The notes beneath the pieces were generated by a model, which saw only the letters and a list, made by a program, of their open reading frames with translations, had not been told where the DNA came from and ran no database searches. The position numbers were made by a program, and so were the translations under genes. From Pyrodictium delaneyi (lineage in GTDB: Archaea; Thermoproteota; Thermoprotei_A; Sulfolobales; Pyrodictiaceae), in NCBI RefSeq assembly GCF_001412615.1, contig NZ_CP013011.1, positions 330,001 through 362,000 of the forward strand: a DNA stretch of 32,000 nt, written 5' to 3'. This document shows positions 18,002-31,254 of this stretch, piece by piece. Position 1 is the stretch's first letter; the number at the start of each line of letters is the position of its first letter.

Positions 18002-18502
18002 TTGGCTTCTGCTCATGTTACTGTCACGCTCCCCCGTTCGCTAGCTGAGCGGGCCCGGAGGGAGGCAGAGAAGCTCGGGCTAGGGCTGGAGGAGTACATC
18101 ATAGAGCTGCTAATGGAGGGTATTGACCCGGAGGAGAGGGCTCACGAATATGTTGTTGCTGCAGGGGAGCTGTTGGAGCAGGCCCGGGAGGAGCTAGCTA
18201 AAGGCGATGTCCGGCAGGCTGCGGAGAAGACGTGGGGGGCCGCCGCTCTATCTGTGAAAGCATACGCAGAGTACCGGTATGGGAAGAGGCTTAGGAGTCA
18301 TGGAGAATTATGGGAATATGCGCGTAGGTTGAACCGGGAGCTGGGAGACTGGGTCTACGATGCTTGGACAGCTGCTACTAGTATGCATGTATGCTTCTAC
18401 GAGGGATGGTGTAGCCGAGAAGATGTAGAGAAAGCGCTGGAACGTGTTAGAAAGCTCGTGAGCGGTGTTAAGAGGCTCATCGCTCGTGCGTCTCTGTCCT
18501 AG
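18002..18502 (+). CDS. Ribbon-helix-helix N-terminus fused to a PaREP1-family domain
   Basis: HVTVTLPRSLAERARREAEKLGLGLEEYIIELL looks like a CopG/RHH unit. AAEKTWGAAALSVKAYAE and WVYDAWTAATSMHVCFYEGW match the PaREP1 signature (EK-x-W/Y-x-AA...KA, then W..A...H...F.E). TTG start. Confidence 0.65.
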   Translation: MASAHVTVTLPRSLAERARREAEKLGLGLEEYIIELLMEGIDPEERAHEYVVAAGELLEQAREELAKGDVRQAAEKTWGAAALSVKAYAEYRYGKRLRSHGELWEYARRLNRELGDWVYDAWTAATSMHVCFYEGWCSREDVEKALERVRKLVSGVKRLIARASLS

Positions 18503-23335: not shown

Positions 23336-23476
23336 TACTACACCATCATAGCACAATGTGCTTATCAAGAAGTGTTACATCGGCGGTAAGGATATAAATC
23401 CCAGAAAAAGACGGAAGCCGTAAGCCGGGTACATGACCACTATTATACCCTACGCAGCATGGAGGTACGATGAGCC

Positions 23477-24058
23477 ATGGTAAGCAAACGTAGGCTTCTC
23501 CTACTAGCGAGCCTCGCAATAGTAGCAGTAGCTGCTGCTGGCGTCTCAGCTAGTGTCTTCGTGTTCTACCCTGGCGATGTAACAGCCCAGTACACCGAGC
23601 CTCCAGTAAAGGTATTTCCGGGCAGCAATGCCGGGCAACGCGACCTTAATGGTGCTAGGATCAATGTCGCGATAGGAGCAAACCAGACAAGTGTATCGTT
23701 AGCGCTGCATCCGACATACCAGATAACGTACTACAAGAACATAACTTTCGTCAAGAACCTTGACACAACCAACAGTTATTACGTATGGTTTAAGACTAGC
23801 CAGCCTACGAACTTCACCGTAACCAACGCTTATCTGAAGCTCATAATAAACGACACCAGTACCGGCGATATCTATGTCCTAGACCTTACCAATAGTGGCG
23901 ACATAGTCGGCCCCATAACCCTCAATGCCGGCGCTAACCTCACTATCGACGTACAGAGCTACTATCCTGAGGGAGAAGCTTTACCAGCAGGCGTCATAAC
24001 AGCTGGTTTCGAGATCATCATAGGTACTGTAAACGAGCAACCACCAGCACCACAGTAA
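23477..24058 (+). CDS. Small secreted beta-rich glycoprotein of unknown function (candidate extracellular fibre/matrix subunit)
   Basis: Sec/SPase-I-type signal peptide MVSKRR-LLLLASLAIVAVAAAGVSA|SV. No further TM segment. The mature ~168 aa are rich in Asn/Thr/Tyr/Val with five N-x-S/T sequons (NQT, NIT, NFT, NDT, NLT). GGAGGT lies 11 nt upstream of the ATG. Confidence 0.7.
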   Translation: MVSKRRLLLLASLAIVAVAAAGVSASVFVFYPGDVTAQYTEPPVKVFPGSNAGQRDLNGARINVAIGANQTSVSLALHPTYQITYYKNITFVKNLDTTNSYYVWFKTSQPTNFTVTNAYLKLIINDTSTGDIYVLDLTNSGDIVGPITLNAGANLTIDVQSYYPEGEALPAGVITAGFEIIIGTVNEQPPAPQ

Positions 24059-24100
24059 AAGAGACAAGGAAATAGGAGCTCTAACCTCCCGTAGGGAAAA

Positions 24101-24107
24101 TTTTCTT
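24101..24107 (+). terminator. Oligo-T tract (TTTTCTT) within the palindromic GAAAATTTTC, downstream of the secreted-protein gene
   Basis: Lies about 45 nt after the stop at 24058. Archaeal termination typically uses T-runs. Confidence 0.45.
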
Positions 24108-24238
24108 CCCGAAACCAATAATCACTTTATAGAATTCATCGGTTTCTGTTGAACTGGATAGATTATTTATTCTATTGTTCTTAGGCTTTGCATGGATAAG
24201 GTATTACCGTTCTTCTATCCGAGCTAGGGTTACAGGCT

Positions 24239-25582
24239 GTGCCGAGGCTTGCTGGCGACTGGTTCATAGACTTGTTTACGGGTGAAGCTGAGAAGCTCAT
24301 AGAGTCACTACGGGGCAGGACTACTGCTAGACAAGGGCTCGGAGCCCCTCCCGCCTACTGGTGGATTCCTGGGCTTCCAGAGCCACATAGTAGTGGCGTA
24401 GTTGCTGCTGTTGACGGTGGTGGCGGGTTAGAGCCGCTGGGCGGTTTTGGAGCTGTGTACATTGCACGTGCTTATGGCTACGTGGAGGGCGGGGAGCCGG
24501 AACGGGGGCTTGAGCTACGCTTCTATCCCGTCCGGGAGCTACGGGTCCTGGATGCACTGCGGAGTTGGCTTGAGCACCGGGTGGCTGTGAGGCTCGTTTA
24601 CCGGCTACCGCCGGGTAGCGTACTATTGATGGATGGGAGTCTGTGGGCCACGGTTACTGCTGGACTTACTGCTGTTGCTAAGCTGGCTTCGCGGGGTGTA
24701 CAGAGCCTTGGCTGGGTCTATGCCGCGCTACTCAGCAGCTATATGCTCGCCGAGGTCTCTGAGCTAGTACGGTCTGCTAGGGAGCGGGGCATAACCATAG
24801 CCTATGTGTCGAAGGACCATGGGCTCCGCGCCCTAAAGGAGAAGGTGCTCCTAGAAGCTGTCGCTGAGAGGGTCCGTGCGCTCCAGCCTCTCGTCTCCCG
24901 TGCGCTAGACTACTATCCGCTCGCACTCCGTGAGCAACTCCTTGAAGCCCGGAGACTAGTGCCAAGCGAGCTCCGCGGCATATTCGACGCCGCGCTCGAC
25001 ATGAGCTACCGCGACACAGGGTTCATACAGGATACAACTGGCCCTGGACCTGGGTATAGCTGGCTCCTCCGCCTACCTCTACCCCAGAGGCTAAGCCAAG
25101 TAATCTCCCGCGGAGGATTGAAGGGACTAGTAGAGAGGGCTGCCGCTAAGGCTGAGGCGCTGCTGGCAGAGGAGCCGGAGGCCGAAGAGTTCCGCTCCCT
25201 AGCAGAGAGGCTTCCTCGGCTACTCGACGAGCTACCCGGTAGCCGGATGCTTTACGTGAGGCTCAATAGTAGCGATCACCCCTTGTTGGTAGAGCTGCCA
25301 GGAGAACCTGGCTGCTACTATTCCCCGGGCCGTGTCCTCGAAGAACCGGGCAGCATCATAGAAGAGGTTGTTGCCACCCTGCGGCGCGGGTACGCGGGCC
25401 CAGAATACTACAACATACCCCTAATAGCTGCACACATGAACGCTACTCTTTCCTCGAGTCAGTTAACTAGCTACATGAGGCTTCTCGAACAACTTGCCGC
25501 AGCCCGAGGGCTCCAGCTAAGACTAGCCCGCCGCAGCCTCATTGGCCGCAATCTTCCCCGCAGACGTCGACGACTCCTCTAG
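24239..25582 (+). CDS. nurA: NurA-family 5'-3' nuclease paralog (solitary)
   Basis: The four NurA blocks are recognisable: VAAVDGGGG, VLLMDGSLW, AYVSKDHG and YNIPLIAAHMNATLS. Compare Sulfolobus NurA FVAIDGGS, YILMDGSL, WISKVSRG and YPFPLLKAHMDVRFS, recalled from memory. 447 aa, GTG start. Confidence 0.8.
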   Translation: MPRLAGDWFIDLFTGEAEKLIESLRGRTTARQGLGAPPAYWWIPGLPEPHSSGVVAAVDGGGGLEPLGGFGAVYIARAYGYVEGGEPERGLELRFYPVRELRVLDALRSWLEHRVAVRLVYRLPPGSVLLMDGSLWATVTAGLTAVAKLASRGVQSLGWVYAALLSSYMLAEVSELVRSARERGITIAYVSKDHGLRALKEKVLLEAVAERVRALQPLVSRALDYYPLALREQLLEARRLVPSELRGIFDAALDMSYRDTGFIQDTTGPGPGYSWLLRLPLPQRLSQVISRGGLKGLVERAAAKAEALLAEEPEAEEFRSLAERLPRLLDELPGSRMLYVRLNSSDHPLLVELPGEPGCYYSPGRVLEEPGSIIEEVVATLRRGYAGPEYYNIPLIAAHMNATLSSSQLTSYMRLLEQLAAARGLQLRLARRSLIGRNLPRRRRRLL

Positions 25583-26137
25583 CACACCTGTAGCCAGTAT
25601 ATAGAGTAATGATAACACTACTAGGACCCCGGCAAGCACTAAGGCTAGCCAGGCACCCAACTCCATGAACCGCGAGGTCTCTACAACTTCTCTACCGAGG
25701 ACTATGAGCCCTGCACTCGTTCTAAGCTGGTAACTTCCTGTTAGCATATCCACACCTCTTTCGAGGAGTCTAAGTAGGGCCCGGAGTACTCCAGCAGCAA
25801 CTAGCGCTATGAGCGAAGCCGTAAACGCCGCTATAGATGCTGTCCCCGGCCGTGCATTTCTTAGCACGATATAAGCTTGTGCAAGGCCAGTCTCCAATGC
25901 TAATAAAGCGGCTGCTAGTACTGGAACGCTGTATACTCTCGCTGCCTCGAAAACCTGTACCTGAACAGGGTTACCTAGGAACCAAACATGGTACCAGAGT
26001 AGCGCTATCCTTGCCTCTACGGGGCCCCGAAGACTGTACAGCGGCTCAATAAGATATAGCACCATGACGACACCATAGAGCCAGAATATGAATGCTAAAA
26101 CTGCTGCTAGTAGTCGTGGCTGTAAGTGAAGCCTCAT
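25523..26137 (-). CDS. Polytopic membrane protein (204 aa, about 4-5 TM), unknown function
   Basis: Hydrophobic helices (LLAAVLAFIFWLYGVVMVLYLI, VPVLAAALLALETGLAQAYIVL, IAAFTASLIALVAAGVL, LGAWLALVLAGVLVVLSLLYILA). Starts 11 nt after the signal-peptidase stop. Its 3' end overlaps the convergent NurA gene by 60 nt. Confidence 0.6.
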   Translation of the reverse strand: MRLHLQPRLLAAVLAFIFWLYGVVMVLYLIEPLYSLRGPVEARIALLWYHVWFLGNPVQVQVFEAARVYSVPVLAAALLALETGLAQAYIVLRNARPGTASIAAFTASLIALVAAGVLRALLRLLERGVDMLTGSYQLRTSAGLIVLGREVVETSRFMELGAWLALVLAGVLVVLSLLYILATGVLEESSTSAGKIAANEAAAG

Positions 26138-26148
26138 GACTTAGTAAC

Positions 26149-27264
26149 TCACCTCCTACATGTGGCTGCTAGTCTAGTCTCAACGATGTCGCCACCGAGC
26201 CACTGGTAGCGAGCCACCACATAGACGCGATCGTGACCTCGTTCTAGCGGGATAGTTACTATAGACCATGGATCGACTTTAAGTGGTGTGCTCTGTAAAT
26301 TACTCTCCTCGTATCTTGTACCCGGGCCTGGGATGACATCCAAGTAGTATATTGTCGTGTTCACATCCAGGGGTACCGGATTCATGTTCTTCACGACAAT
26401 GGTTGTACAGTTGAGTTTAAGTATAGGCTTCTTCCAGGGCACTCTTATTGTATAATCCGCTAAAAGGAATCCATACGACAGCGTAGCCGTGAATGATAAT
26501 TTGTATTCTATTATACCTGTCATGAATAATTCTTGATAGAACAGCTGTGGTACGTGGACATAGACTGTATCCCCGGGCAAAAGGTAGGGTGAGCAATGAC
26601 TCGTTATACCGTCTCCAGCTACTGTGCAGTTTTGTATATCCATCAGCACCGTGTTTTCAACATTGTATTTAATTAGGACGGAACCTCTCTCGAGAGCTAT
26701 ATGTTTAAGCGTTATCATGGGCATCATCGACTCTATGGAGGACGACTGGGGCGGTATAGGTGCTAATATTGGTGCACCCAAAGTGAACACTATATAGAGT
26801 GTTACAGCAAACACTGAGGCAGCCTCCACAGCTTCAATTCCTGTAACAGCGGCACGTGCTATGTTTGTAAGCCAGTATACAGCGAGCGGAGCTATGATGG
26901 CGGCTACAGCAATGCGCGGAATACGAGCTACCACCACGTACTTCACCGCCGAGAGCGGTACAGGTTGGTCAGGTACAGGGTTAGCATCACCTTTGGTCAC
27001 CGCCATACCATCCTGGATGTCTACTAAACGATGCATAACACAGTGTGTATACCCCGTACACCATAGAACAACGTCTCCTATACGGGGCTGTTTCTTCGCG
27101 AGGATGACTAGATCGCCAAGCATATAGTTAGGTTCCATGGAGCGGCCGGCAACGACCGCCAGAGCTAGGGGTGCATCCAGAAGTCTAGCAAAGGATAGAG
27201 CTACGAATACGAGTATTATAGAAACTGTTATCAAATTCATGATGTCTCTGAATCTGCTCTCCAA
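26149..27264 (-). CDS. Type I signal peptidase (S26B, Sec11/SipW-like) fused to two TM helices and a ~200-aa extracytoplasmic C-terminal domain
   Basis: N-terminal TM, then catalytic boxes VVAGRSMEP (Ser), CVMHRLV (His) and TKGDANPVPD. Hydrophobic helices follow (IAVAAIIAPLAVYWL, ASVFAVTLYIVFTLGAPILAPI), then a beta-rich Cys-containing domain with sequons (NCT twice, NTT). The start is either the TTG at 27264 or the ATG at 27240. Confidence 0.8.
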   Translation of the reverse strand: MESRFRDIMNLITVSIILVFVALSFARLLDAPLALAVVAGRSMEPNYMLGDLVILAKKQPRIGDVVLWCTGYTHCVMHRLVDIQDGMAVTKGDANPVPDQPVPLSAVKYVVVARIPRIAVAAIIAPLAVYWLTNIARAAVTGIEAVEAASVFAVTLYIVFTLGAPILAPIPPQSSSIESMMPMITLKHIALERGSVLIKYNVENTVLMDIQNCTVAGDGITSHCSPYLLPGDTVYVHVPQLFYQELFMTGIIEYKLSFTATLSYGFLLADYTIRVPWKKPILKLNCTTIVVKNMNPVPLDVNTTIYYLDVIPGPGTRYEESNLQSTPLKVDPWSIVTIPLERGHDRVYVVARYQWLGGDIVETRLAATCRR

Positions 27265-27381: not shown

Positions 27382-27388
27382 AAAAAAA
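27382..27388 (-). terminator. T7 tract (A7 on the plus strand) about 45 nt downstream of the family-5 SBP stop
   Basis: On the coding (minus) strand the sequence reads TGTTTTTTTGATTTTC immediately after the SBP gene. Confidence 0.5.
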
Positions 27389-29148: not shown

Positions 29149-31254
29149 ATGGTTACACTCGGGGATATGAAAGCCTTATCCTCAACTGGCCGGACGGGCC
29201 AGCTTCAAGGCTACGAGGATATAGTGCTGCGCCCTCACGATCATGTCCCGGGGGTGCCAGGCCTGGTGTTTGAGCAGCAAAAACCCATACCGGTCATGGT
29301 TGTGCTCCGTGGCCGTGTTGTTGTTGCCCGTGTGCCGCGTGTCGCCTCCCGCTGGCTCGGCGGTCTCCTGGTGGAGCTTGAAACCGGGGTACAAGTACAT
29401 CTTCTCATGCCTGGCGCTATTGCCCGGTGGCTGCATAGAGGGGAGAGGGTAGAGGTAAGGTTCCTCGAGGAGCCCGAACGTGTCAATGGAGTCTATGTCG
29501 CGCCGAGGGATTCCTATGAGCTGTGGAGGATCTGGGGTAGCGAGCAGAGAGAGGAGCGGGTCAAAGTCTGGCCTCCGTGGAGGCGCGAAGCTCGGCTAGA
29601 GCGGGAGAGTTTCCTCGGGGAGAGGGTCTACGAGTACCGCGTTGTAGCCCGCGAGGCCGTCACGGAGGATGATTTTCGAGAGATAGTAGGTCTCGAGCAA
29701 TATCATTATGCTAGCAGGGAGGAGGTCGTAGCGATATGGAGATGCCCTGTCTGCGGCAACTACGCTGAGGCTAACGTGCAGCCCACCTGCCCCCGTTGCG
29801 GTGTGCCGATGAAGCTCCAGGAGATACGTGGAAGCCTCCCTTCGAGCAGGTTCATGGTCCTCGAGCTGGCCTCCAGGGAGCCCTACGAGCCAAGGATAGT
29901 GGCCTATGTCCGGGTTGACACACCTATACCGTTGATGCACCGCCGCATAGTCAAGGAGGATGGAGGTGTAGAGATAGAACGGATGATAAGGGAGCGGGTG
30001 TTCCCGAAGGACTGGTTCCACCCCACATTCTGGCCCCTTGCCTACACGCGACGGGCTGAGCTGCGGAAACGGTTCCAGGAGCTAGCCGAGCTCTATGGCT
30101 CCCGCCGCATCGCTCGTGCCGTCGTGGGCGAGGAGATAGCTGAGGAGGCTCTCCGCCGCGCAAACACCGCTGCCGCGCGTATAGCACGTGTTGTGGTCCA
30201 CCCCGACTACCGTGGCGACGGGCTCGGCGTCCTAGCAGTGAAGATGGCGCTTGAATGGATACGGGAGCGCCGCATCCCAGAGATGAAGAGGAGGAAACAT
30301 GTAGTCGAGACCATAGCCCAGATGGCGCGGTTCAACCCGTTCTTCGAGAGGGCCGGGTTCCGCTACATGTGGGACACGGCTAGCGGCCGCCCTGTGCTAA
30401 TGTACCCGCTCACCGAGGAAGCTCGGAAGAGGATAGAGGAGTTCCTTGAGAAGGACCCCTATGCCCGCCGCCACGGTGGCAAACTTTTCCGTCCACGCTA
30501 TGGCGGTGTTGAGCCTCTTTCAGGGCCGATAAAGCTAGTCAACCTCACCAAGATCTACCGTAGCGAGCTAGACGTCTCCAGACTCCCACCCGAACTACAA
30601 GACGTATTGCGCGCCTTTGGCGCCGAGAGGAGGCGAGTAGAACGCTACGTGCTGCGCAACACGAGCTTCGAGATAAAGCCAGGCGAGGTAGTCGCAGTGG
30701 TAGGCGCTAGCGGCGCAGGAAAGACCACCCTGTTACGCATGATTATAGGCGCTGCGCTGGGCGCCAGGGACGAGAACTACCAGCCGAGCCAGGGCAGGGT
30801 AGAGGTGCCGAACAACGTTAAGCTCGCCGCGTTACTGCCCGGGGAGATGGAACCGGTGTTCGGCAGCGAGACTCTGCTAGAACACGTAGCCCGTAAGATA
30901 GGAGACCCAGCCGCGGCTGTAGAGATACTCAACGCCGTCGGGCTGAGCGATGCAATATTCTACCGCGCCCGGTTCGACGAGCTCTCCACTGGCCAGAAAG
31001 AGCGGGCCCGGCTAGCAAGCCTCCTCGCAGAGAGGCCCAACCTACTGGTCATAGACGAGTTTACTGCCCACCTGGATCGTCTGACAGCGCAGAGGGTTGC
31101 CCGTAAGCTGAGCAGCCTAGCACGTCGCGTAGGCATAACCCTGGTGGTCTCCACTAACCGGCCAGAAGTGCTCCAGGCGCTAGCACCGGACAAGGTGGTG
31201 CTCGTCGGCTACGGCACGGCAGTAGTAGCGGAAGAGAGGACTGGGGCCCGGTAG
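29149..31254 (+). CDS. Multidomain fusion: N-terminal domain of unknown function, zinc ribbon, GNAT acetyltransferase and a single ABC-type ATPase domain (COG2401-like)
   Basis: Zinc ribbon CPVCGNYAEANVQPTCPRCG (aa 199-217). GNAT motif A RIARVVVHPDYRGDGLGVLAV (aa ~345-365). ABC Walker A GASGAGKTT (aa 519-527), signature LSTGQKERARLA, and Walker B LLVIDEF. The usual H-loop His position reads VVSTNRPE. The start could alternatively be the ATG at 29167. Confidence 0.8.
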   Translation: MVTLGDMKALSSTGRTGQLQGYEDIVLRPHDHVPGVPGLVFEQQKPIPVMVVLRGRVVVARVPRVASRWLGGLLVELETGVQVHLLMPGAIARWLHRGERVEVRFLEEPERVNGVYVAPRDSYELWRIWGSEQREERVKVWPPWRREARLERESFLGERVYEYRVVAREAVTEDDFREIVGLEQYHYASREEVVAIWRCPVCGNYAEANVQPTCPRCGVPMKLQEIRGSLPSSRFMVLELASREPYEPRIVAYVRVDTPIPLMHRRIVKEDGGVEIERMIRERVFPKDWFHPTFWPLAYTRRAELRKRFQELAELYGSRRIARAVVGEEIAEEALRRANTAAARIARVVVHPDYRGDGLGVLAVKMALEWIRERRIPEMKRRKHVVETIAQMARFNPFFERAGFRYMWDTASGRPVLMYPLTEEARKRIEEFLEKDPYARRHGGKLFRPRYGGVEPLSGPIKLVNLTKIYRSELDVSRLPPELQDVLRAFGAERRRVERYVLRNTSFEIKPGEVVAVVGASGAGKTTLLRMIIGAALGARDENYQPSQGRVEVPNNVKLAALLPGEMEPVFGSETLLEHVARKIGDPAAAVEILNAVGLSDAIFYRARFDELSTGQKERARLASLLAERPNLLVIDEFTAHLDRLTAQRVARKLSSLARRVGITLVVSTNRPEVLQALAPDKVVLVGYGTAVVAEERTGAR

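Follow-up and report, generated by a model that had tools for sequence, protein, structure and literature searches.

Does a small secreted protein of Pyrodictium delaneyi build a surface filament, and does the signal peptidase encoded near it serve that filament? We examined this question in a 32-kb stretch of P. delaneyi DNA (the window), for which a sequence-only reading had proposed an uncharacterised filament or matrix module with a dedicated SipW-type signal peptidase. We checked the open reading frames (ORFs) named in that proposal, and all three were found at the coordinates, strands and lengths, in amino acids (aa), given here:

23477-24058, forward strand: precursor of a thread-like major filament subunit, 193 aa, WP_055407691.1, Pyrde_0358 (profile match to Saci_0406, AlphaFold2 (AF2) model, Foldseek)
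26149-27264, reverse strand: long, putatively dedicated signal peptidase I (SPase I), 371 aa, WP_055407697.1 (TIGR02228 and SEC11A matches, synteny)
25523-26137, reverse strand: membrane partner with four transmembrane (TM) segments (the 4-TM protein), 204 aa, WP_055407695.1 (four hydrophobic segments, no known family)

Our data largely support the proposal. The part that did not stand is that the module is wholly uncharacterised, as it is a relative of published filaments. We consider it likely that thread-type (TasA-superfamily) surface filaments are encoded at the locus along with a processing enzyme of their own.

The secreted subunit

The 193-aa protein has an N-terminal hydrophobic segment that runs up to VSA↓SVFVFYP (the arrow marks the predicted cut), lacks a second hydrophobic segment and carries exactly five N-X-S/T sequons, as described earlier. 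We counted no Cys residues. Two N-terminal features bear on its proposed role:

23477-23551, forward strand: Sec/SPase I signal peptide, residues 1-25, predicted cleavage VSA↓S; hydrophobic helix 4-21 in the model
23552-23611, forward strand: predicted donor strand and linker, residues 26-45, SVFVFYPGDVTAQYTEPPVK; from family conservation and alignment to the Saci_0406 donor tail

The 193-aa sequence alone matched no curated family (Pfam, NCBIfam), and a single-sequence PDB search with it did not return 7PNB, a structure of the Sulfolobus acidocaldarius thread subunit Saci_0406. An exhaustive HMMER search gathered a family of 102 cluster representatives, nearly all of 175-210 aa. When a 74-member profile of this family was compared with the PDB, it matched 7PNB_A (E = 1.4e-12, 51 bits; profile positions 1-184 to residues 1-199). 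The alignment covered the signal peptide, the cleavage site and the N-terminal tail, and the profile also matched 8RZL. Homology to the thread subunit, which the sequence-only reading could not show by eye, is now established at this E-value.

We modelled the subunit with AF2 using the family alignment as input (predicted local distance difference test (pLDDT) 94.3, predicted TM-score (pTM) 0.80). Foldseek returned only four PDB matches at E <= 1e-3, all of them archaeal donor-strand-complementation filaments. The thread 7PNB ranked first (E = 9.8e-8, TM-scores 0.63/0.66), followed by 7UEG, the archaeal bundling pilus subunit AbpA (E = 1.8e-6, 0.60/0.64). The other two were the cannula-type tubes 9H8B and 9BAB (TM-scores 0.37-0.50). 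Chaperone-usher pilins appeared as weak matches below these four. The structure search gave matches to threads, AbpA and cannula-type tubes, and a solute-binding, inhibitor or S-layer-type fold was checked and was not found.

The cleavage site was placed from the family alignment and the -3/-1 rule. Ala occupies position -1 in 68/74 homologues and a small residue position +1 in 66/74. In the alignment, VSA↓S of the subunit falls on LVA↓D of Saci_0406, a protein whose mature N-terminus has been observed by cryo-electron microscopy (cryo-EM; PMC9715654). The best-conserved stretch of the family comprises V27 (61/74), F28 (56), V29 (57), Y31 (56), P32 (60), P42 (55) and P43 (59). Its consensus is A↓SVFVYYP followed by PP about nine residues later, with VFVFYP in the window protein. 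In Saci_0406 the donor tail DVIYYYQGQITVGNVAPP corresponds to this stretch in the alignment. At position +1, 31 of the 74 sequences have Ser, 19 Gly and 16 Ala; Asp is not among the residues tallied. Near Asn57 of Saci_0406 the family has N51 (68/74) and D56 (63/74). Asn57 itself falls at an insertion relative to the family and is not confidently alignable; the adjoining position is Asn in 33/74 sequences and Ala in the window protein. These data show a jelly-roll subunit of the thread/AbpA kind whose cleavage site and tail are conserved.

PF12389 (TasA/camelysin) was matched by 0/74 family members, and the kinship of the subunit to TasA/camelysin is only at the superfamily or fold level (10.64898/2026.01.04.697558). 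We rejected the UniRef label DUF1102, as PF06510 was matched neither by the window protein (E <= 1) nor by any of the 74 homologues (E <= 0.01). Residues 70-154 showed marginal similarity (E ~2e-3) to the second jelly-roll of the A223 penton of Sulfolobus turreted icosahedral virus (STIV; 4IL7, 3J31, 6BO3; PF21881). A viral origin was likewise rejected: the A223 matches are sub-threshold, and a viral structure search gave only weak, generic jelly-rolls.

The long signal peptidase and its gene neighbourhood

The peptidase divides into three parts beyond its first TM helix (TM1), described in terms of S26-family, immunoglobulin (Ig) and fibronectin type III (FnIII) domains:

26920-27168, reverse strand: S26 catalytic domain, residues 33-115, with Ser42, His78, Asp93 and Asp99; invariant in 17 sequences
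26764-26916, reverse strand: TM hairpin, residues 117-167, which takes the chain back outside; Kyte-Doolittle segments in 13/13 long forms
26161-26718, reverse strand: C-terminal ectodomain, residues 183-368, two Ig/FnIII-like beta-sandwiches with a conserved Cys pair and an NPN motif; AF2, Foldseek

We observed a match of the peptidase to TIGR02228, the archaeal SPase I model (64.2 bits, cut-off 51.85, residues 6-107 only), and a further match to human SEC11A in the PDB. The catalytic boxes are intact, as claimed earlier: Ser42, His78 and Gly92-Asp93-x-Asn95 are invariant in 17 aligned peptidases, along with Met43, Pro45, Arg79 and Asp99. Within the 13 long forms, Cys69 and Cys75 of the catalytic domain and P182 and N293 of the C-terminal part are also invariant. 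All 13 have TM1, then the catalytic domain, then the TM hairpin, and the catalytic and C-terminal domains should therefore both face outward.

The extension also proved to be as described, with two further hydrophobic helices and then a beta-rich domain of about 190 aa (residues 183-368) with four Cys (Cys213, Cys224, Cys286 and Cys369) and three sequons. In an AF2 model made from a 5-sequence alignment (overall pLDDT 71.9), the helices span residues ~117-138 and 143-167 at low pLDDT, and residues 183-368 form two beta-sandwiches at a pLDDT of about 80-90. Foldseek on the ectodomain returned tandem FnIII/Ig modules, including transglutaminase C-barrels, cytokine receptors and the Vibrio cholerae biofilm scaffold RbmA (E ~1e-4 to 1e-5). 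These data show a peptidase with intact catalytic residues and an outward-facing tandem Ig-like domain.

A homology search with the peptidase gave only 7 matches among 5.8 billion proteins. Plasmid searches gave two haloarchaeal matches only, each limited to the catalytic core. Past its catalytic domain, a haloarchaeal long SPase I carries a comparable pair of TM helices, and the 4-TM SPase I on the Haloarcula halophila plasmid NZ_CP119561.1 has only the catalytic core in common with the window peptidase. The operon around this plasmid gene (positions 278689-287357 of contig L022) also encodes a protein annotated with a SipW-dependent-type signal peptide, two von Willebrand factor A (vWA) proteins, two hypothetical secreted proteins and a 517-aa, extremely acidic protein rich in Asp, Ser and Gly; we note this operon as a possible further fibre or matrix system on a megaplasmid. 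The gene of a bacterial long SPase (P0026) adjoins and follows that of a PF12389 protein. This enzyme and the Haloarcula one are distant relatives of the window peptidase that are likewise paired with TasA-type substrates. On an apparently bacterial Logan contig (SRR8550535_533592, L021 5447-7020), a gene for a 182-aa PF12389 protein is followed after 5 nucleotides (nt) by one for a 339-aa SPase I with a C-terminal extension. Three further proteins (P0027-P0029) have SPase I domains behind an N-terminal region of ~300 aa with multiple TM helices, and are probably members of the ten-TM SPase I class reported beside abpX (10.64898/2026.01.04.697558).

We scanned one genome per species with the conserved subunit block from a 7-sequence alignment. 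The scan gave 12 loci from Desulfurococcales, Acidilobaceae, Zestosphaera, Ignisphaera and Sulfolobales metagenome-assembled genomes, which we annotated with our own profiles. Two of the 12 end before the downstream region is visible, and 10 are informative. A long peptidase (364-390 aa, same architecture) lies downstream of the subunit, on the same strand and within two genes, in 10/10 informative loci. Contigs from other look-ups (L002, L003, L004 and L005) fit the same pattern, and L002 and L004 likewise carry a long peptidase with a thread-like gene. The pairing of subunit and peptidase is far beyond chance, because it is present in every informative related locus, and the supposed linkage of the long peptidase to small secreted proteins holds across these genomes.

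The gene order was major subunit, a larger, secreted tip-like protein (320-500 aa), long peptidase and 4-TM protein at eight loci, including the metagenome locus L004; at three loci the peptidase gene directly follows the major subunit. The L004 and L007 contigs end inside the peptidase gene. Similarity between the tip-like proteins and the major subunit (hhalign 97.3%, E = 2e-11) is confined to the signal peptide, the A↓SVFVYYP..PP motif and the initial strands. Because of this common signal peptide and motif, the tip-like proteins are likely substrates of the same peptidase and donors of the same type of strand.

The 204-aa membrane protein is encoded 11 nt downstream of the peptidase gene, as noted earlier, and has four hydrophobic segments. 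Pfam and NCBIfam searches with it gave no match. We found a homologue directly after, or overlapping, the long peptidase gene at nine loci (L002, L005, L006, L009, L011, L012, L013, L014 and L015), and the two genes overlap or abut in every locus that holds both. At L010 and L017, a fifth hydrophobic segment and, after it, GA↓SVFAYY..PPP join the 4-TM protein to a tip-like protein in one fused chain. These fusion proteins (L010 10718-12859 and L017 10657-12939; 713 and 760 aa) have an internal A↓SVF(A/V)Y motif, a predicted site of cleavage and strand donation. Profile-profile comparison (hhalign) related their 4-TM part to the 204-aa family (97.4%, E = 1e-11) and their tip part to the tip-like proteins (99.8%, E = 2e-28). 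The fusions tie the 4-TM protein to the filament system by an independent line of evidence and support a direct role for it in the filament. They imply either internal cleavage by the adjoining peptidase or a membrane-anchored filament base. Overall, these data show joint inheritance of the genes for the subunit, the tip-like protein, the peptidase and the 4-TM protein.

The arrangement in P. delaneyi differs from this order. The module there consists of two convergent units, with the subunit and then a NurA gene on the forward strand, and the peptidase and then the 4-TM gene on the reverse strand:

24239-25582, forward strand: NurA-domain protein, 447 aa (PF09376, E = 7e-8), in the slot of the tip-like gene of related loci

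L002 has the identical convergent layout, but with a 504-aa tip-like gene at the NurA position. We rejected NurA as a member of the module, since it is absent from all related loci (0/16). The NurA gene is richer in GC (0.60) than the module genes (0.47-0.52), and at its 3' end it shares 60 nt with the convergent 4-TM gene. It stands alone, with no HerA, Mre11 or Rad50 partner nearby. We regard NurA as an unrelated interloper and the ancestral operon as rearranged in P. delaneyi. The tip-like gene of L012 lies outside the core operon, and a P. delaneyi tip-like gene may for this reason exist elsewhere in the 2-Mb genome.

A candidate thread-type filament system

The subunit is closest to the S. 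acidocaldarius thread Saci_0406 (7PNB, 8RZL; PMC9715654). The two show full-length sequence homology, the thread is the best structural match, and both are proteins of Thermoproteota of similar size. The thread is N-glycosylated, with five glycans modelled in its structure (PMC9715654), and the P. delaneyi subunit has five sequons. In both, a Sec/SPase I signal directly precedes an aromatic-rich donor tail with a PP motif. The mature thread protein begins at the SPase I site, its first residues are the donor strand, and its new alpha-amino group takes part in a proposed isopeptide bond (PMC9715654). The first seven mature residues of the published thread homologues are identical, including the N-terminal Asp and a YYY motif (PMC9715654); the tail reads VIYYYQ in the thread and VFVYYP in the clade described here.

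The accessory genes differ. The saci_0405/0407/0408 neighbourhood is not kept at the P. delaneyi module, and no homologues of the Sulfolobus locus proteins (276 aa, Saci_0407/0408; a 266-aa membrane protein; 442 aa) were found in it (hhalign <7%). Saci_0407/0408, split or fused depending on the strain, were tried as counterparts of the peptidase or its ectodomain and rejected, with negative HMM and profile-profile comparisons at three S. acidocaldarius loci. Saci_0404, Saci_0407/0408 and the 266-aa membrane protein all failed to resemble the tip-like protein, the peptidase ectodomain or the 4-TM protein. Because the peptidase is absent at the Sulfolobus locus, the accessory genes are unrelated and the N-terminal Asp is replaced, the P. 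delaneyi clade is a sister clade of the threads and not the same system. Downstream of Saci_0406/0405 we noted a 442-aa protein (L019 8168-9496) with a signal peptide and then SASVYYFFQAQLIF, which resembles the thread donor tail. This protein might donate a strand, as a tip or anchor, in the Sulfolobus thread; its hhalign comparison with the tip-like proteins of the present clade was negative.

Threads, AbpA, CanA, Tafi, AbpX and TasA have been grouped as one superfamily, often with a co-located SPase I, and no such co-location was reported for threads (10.64898/2026.01.04.697558). In two members, the role of the peptidase is established: TafD knock-out abolishes TafA processing and fimbriae (PMC11821415), and SipW processes TasA and TapA (PMC9245690). 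The principle of a fibre with a dedicated SPase I (SipW, TafD, AbpX) is therefore already published. The thread-like clade with a long peptidase and a 4-TM partner appears to be undescribed.

The closest functional analogue is the haloarchaeal Tafi system with its Sec-dependent relatives in Thermococcales and Archaeoglobales. The twin-arginine translocation (Tat) fimbriae (tafA-G) and the Sec-dependent DUF1102 clusters (PMC11821415, PMC12337348) likewise have major and minor strand donors and a larger tip protein. TafD, their dedicated SPase I, also carries additional TM helices and ends in an Ig-like ectodomain, and another membrane protein is believed to help it. Their subunits are TafE-like, whereas those described here are thread/AbpA-like. 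Identity with the TafE family was rejected: no TafE match appeared in the PDB profile search or in Foldseek, and the published TafE survey contains no Desulfurococcales or Pyrodictiaceae. TafD, compared here by its description only, has four TM helices with the N-terminal peptidase and the C-terminal Ig-like domain outside. The P. delaneyi peptidase has three, lacks a C-terminal anchor and carries two Ig/FnIII-like sandwiches. The partner in the Tat-fimbriae is TafG (DUF5305); here it is the ~200-aa 4-TM protein, and DUF5305 was unmatched in the scanned cluster proteins. Export of the fimbriae is by Tat, and the subunit described here has a Sec signal.

Similar likenesses and differences were seen with three other systems. 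The Bacillus subtilis tapA-sipW-tasA operon also combines an S26 peptidase of the endoplasmic-reticulum/archaeal (Ser-His) type, a strand-donating jelly-roll subunit and a larger accessory or initiator protein with a like signal. The P. delaneyi peptidase scores weakly against the SipW model NF046067 (19 bits, cut-off 190), and SipW has neither the tandem Ig-like ectodomain nor the 4-TM partner present here. AbpA of Pyrobaculum calidifontis (7UEG; PMC9245690) is the second-best structural match, and its operon has several 4-TM proteins and a larger TapA-like protein; no match exists at the sequence level, and the bundling-pilus paper found no dedicated peptidase near the operon (PMC9245690). 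AbpX of Pyrodictium abyssi (10.64898/2026.01.04.697558), from the same genus, is a TasA-superfamily fibril subunit with an adjoining dedicated TIGR02228-type SPase I. That peptidase is described with ten TM helices, and AbpX forms calcium-dependent lattices. The window locus was rejected as the AbpX locus, as the P. delaneyi AbpX homologue is WP_055409108.1 and not WP_055407691.1.

We propose the following assembly pathway, based on the genes and a single-chain model. Sec would export the 193-aa pre-protein, and the long SPase I, with three helices and both domains outside, would cut it after Ala25. This cut would release the N-terminus SVFVFYP..PP as a donor strand. The strand would enter the open beta-sheet of a neighbouring subunit by donor-strand complementation, giving a thin, N-glycosylated, heat-stable filament like the Sulfolobus threads or the Pyrobaculum bundling pili. 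The translationally coupled 4-TM protein would work with the peptidase, most likely as an accessory subunit or as a base in the membrane from which pre-subunits are presented or on which the first, tip-like subunit is held. We infer that the peptidase cleaves both secreted proteins after the conserved Ala, and that the ectodomain and the 4-TM protein serve to place substrates or to tether the first subunit.

A more ambitious version of this pathway, which we put forward only tentatively and think unlikely to be correct, treats the peptidase and the 4-TM protein as the assembly machine of thread-type filaments. Cleavage would be mechanically coupled to hand-over of the strand to the prior, membrane-held subunit. 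Such a machine would be enzyme-gated, would dispense with chaperones and ushers, and would exchange strands on proteolytic triggering in the manner of bacterial type V pili. The base that first presents the tip-like initiator would be the 4-TM protein, as the fusions at L010 and L017 suggest.

Several points weigh against a thread-type system with its own enzyme in P. delaneyi. The mature Asp24 of the thread, conserved in published homologues and part of the proposed isopeptide bond, is Ser, Gly or Ala in this clade. The thread locus of S. acidocaldarius has no such peptidase or 4-TM protein, so threads are possible without them. The peptidase model is moderate (5 sequences, pLDDT 71.9), and the PDB matches of its ectodomain are generic. 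A tip-like or initiator gene was not found in the 32-kb window by hmmsearch --max (E <= 50) or a motif regular expression. Because NurA interrupts the operon and this gene is not in the window, the P. delaneyi system may be incomplete, or may depend on a gene elsewhere.

One alternative is that the locus is a decaying remnant of an inherited four-gene operon. The rearrangement that brought NurA would have removed the tip-like or initiator gene, so that no filament is made and the genes are idle or reused. The tip-like gene of 13 related loci is indeed missing from the whole window, NurA sits exactly in the tip-like slot when compared with L002, and the two convergent units into which the operon has been divided overlap by 60 nt at their 3' ends. 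We nevertheless consider decay improbable. The three remaining genes are intact, the catalytic residues and the donor-strand motif are kept, and the subunit model is very confident. Independent metagenome contigs carry these genes at >=90% identity, and on one of them the peptidase, the 4-TM gene and NurA occur together. The location of the L012 tip-like gene also allows that one may lie elsewhere in the P. delaneyi genome.

We find it quite improbable that the subunit fold serves another assembly, such as cannula-like tubes, an AbpX-like calcium-dependent lattice, or a non-filamentous oligomer or surface coat. The cannula proteins 9H8B and 9BAB are also significant structural matches, Pyrodictium is known for cannulae and AbpX networks (10.1101/2024.12.30.630787; 10.64898/2026.01.04.697558), and AlphaFold gave non-filamentous assemblies for some TafE homologues (PMC12337348). 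However, the thread subunit was the sole PDB match of the sequence profile, TM-scores were 0.60-0.66 to the thread and AbpA against 0.37-0.50 to the cannula proteins, and P. delaneyi is reported to lack CanX homologues (10.1101/2024.12.30.630787).

Least probable of all, and highly so, is that the long enzyme is a housekeeping SPase I beside an abundant substrate, with the ectodomain and the 4-TM protein as accessory parts like those of the signal peptidase complex (SPC): its matches to the general archaeal model TIGR02228 and to SEC11A would fit, as would the generic SPase I assumed in the AbpA and thread papers (PMC9245690, PMC9715654), but the long forms with enough flank all adjoin a thread-like gene (L002, L004, L006, L007, L009-L015 and L017), seven database matches are unlike a universal enzyme, S. 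acidocaldarius makes threads from a locus that lacks such a gene, two genomes encode the 4-TM partner in fusion with a filament subunit, and an SPase I beside abpX in P. abyssi, together with the AbpX homologue of P. delaneyi (10.1101/2024.12.30.630787), suggests several SPase I per Pyrodictium genome.

Read as a thread-type filament system with its own peptidase, the locus yields concrete candidates for the assembly machinery of such filaments, in the form of specific proteins and testable hypotheses. The thread paper describes the assembly machinery as unknown and leaves the neighbouring genes uninterpreted (PMC9715654). These candidates bear on the question of how the threads, bundling pili and cannulae of archaea are put together at the membrane. 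The rule that a TasA-superfamily fibre has its own signal peptidase (SipW, TafD, AbpX-SPase) would extend to the thread branch and to Desulfurococcales and Pyrodictiaceae. Our data also suggest that AbpX is not the only strand-donation filament of P. delaneyi, a species without cannula genes, and that the one described here is a second. Subunits that are small, Cys-free, hyperthermostable and, as proposed, self-assembling would be of interest as materials.

Flanking features and base composition

The GC content was 0.49 for the 193-aa gene, 0.47 for the peptidase gene and 0.52 for the 204-aa gene, compared with 0.557 for the window and 0.54-0.61 for the neighbours. The three genes had been called visibly more AT-rich than their surroundings; the direction is correct, but the difference is modest. 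Four candidate signals flank the genes, each read from the nucleotide sequence:

23392-23399, forward strand: TATA-box-like ATATAAAT, a candidate promoter ~78 nt upstream of the subunit gene
23461-23465, forward strand: GGAGG, 11 nt before the ATG of the subunit gene
24094-24110, forward strand: putative terminator, a small inverted repeat with a T-run (GGGAAAATTTTCTTCCC), 36 nt past the subunit gene
27382-27388, reverse strand: putative terminator, a T7 run between the upstream solute-binding-protein gene and the peptidase gene

The T7 run possibly acts as a terminator that parts the solute-binding-protein gene from the peptidase gene.

Other parts of the window held further features. An ORF at 29149-31254 (forward strand) encodes a 701-aa protein with an unusual fusion of a zinc-ribbon-like region (~190-225), a GNAT acetyltransferase (~330-405) and a C-terminal ATP-binding-cassette-type ATPase (502-640). 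A PaREP1-family gene lies at ~18002-18502 of the window (L001 4526-5026). A stretch at ~16.0-16.6 kb has a GC content of 0.44, and the adjoining 15.2-15.8 kb a GC content of 0.68. Just past the 3' end of the window we observed a tyrosine integrase gene (L001 19103-20512).

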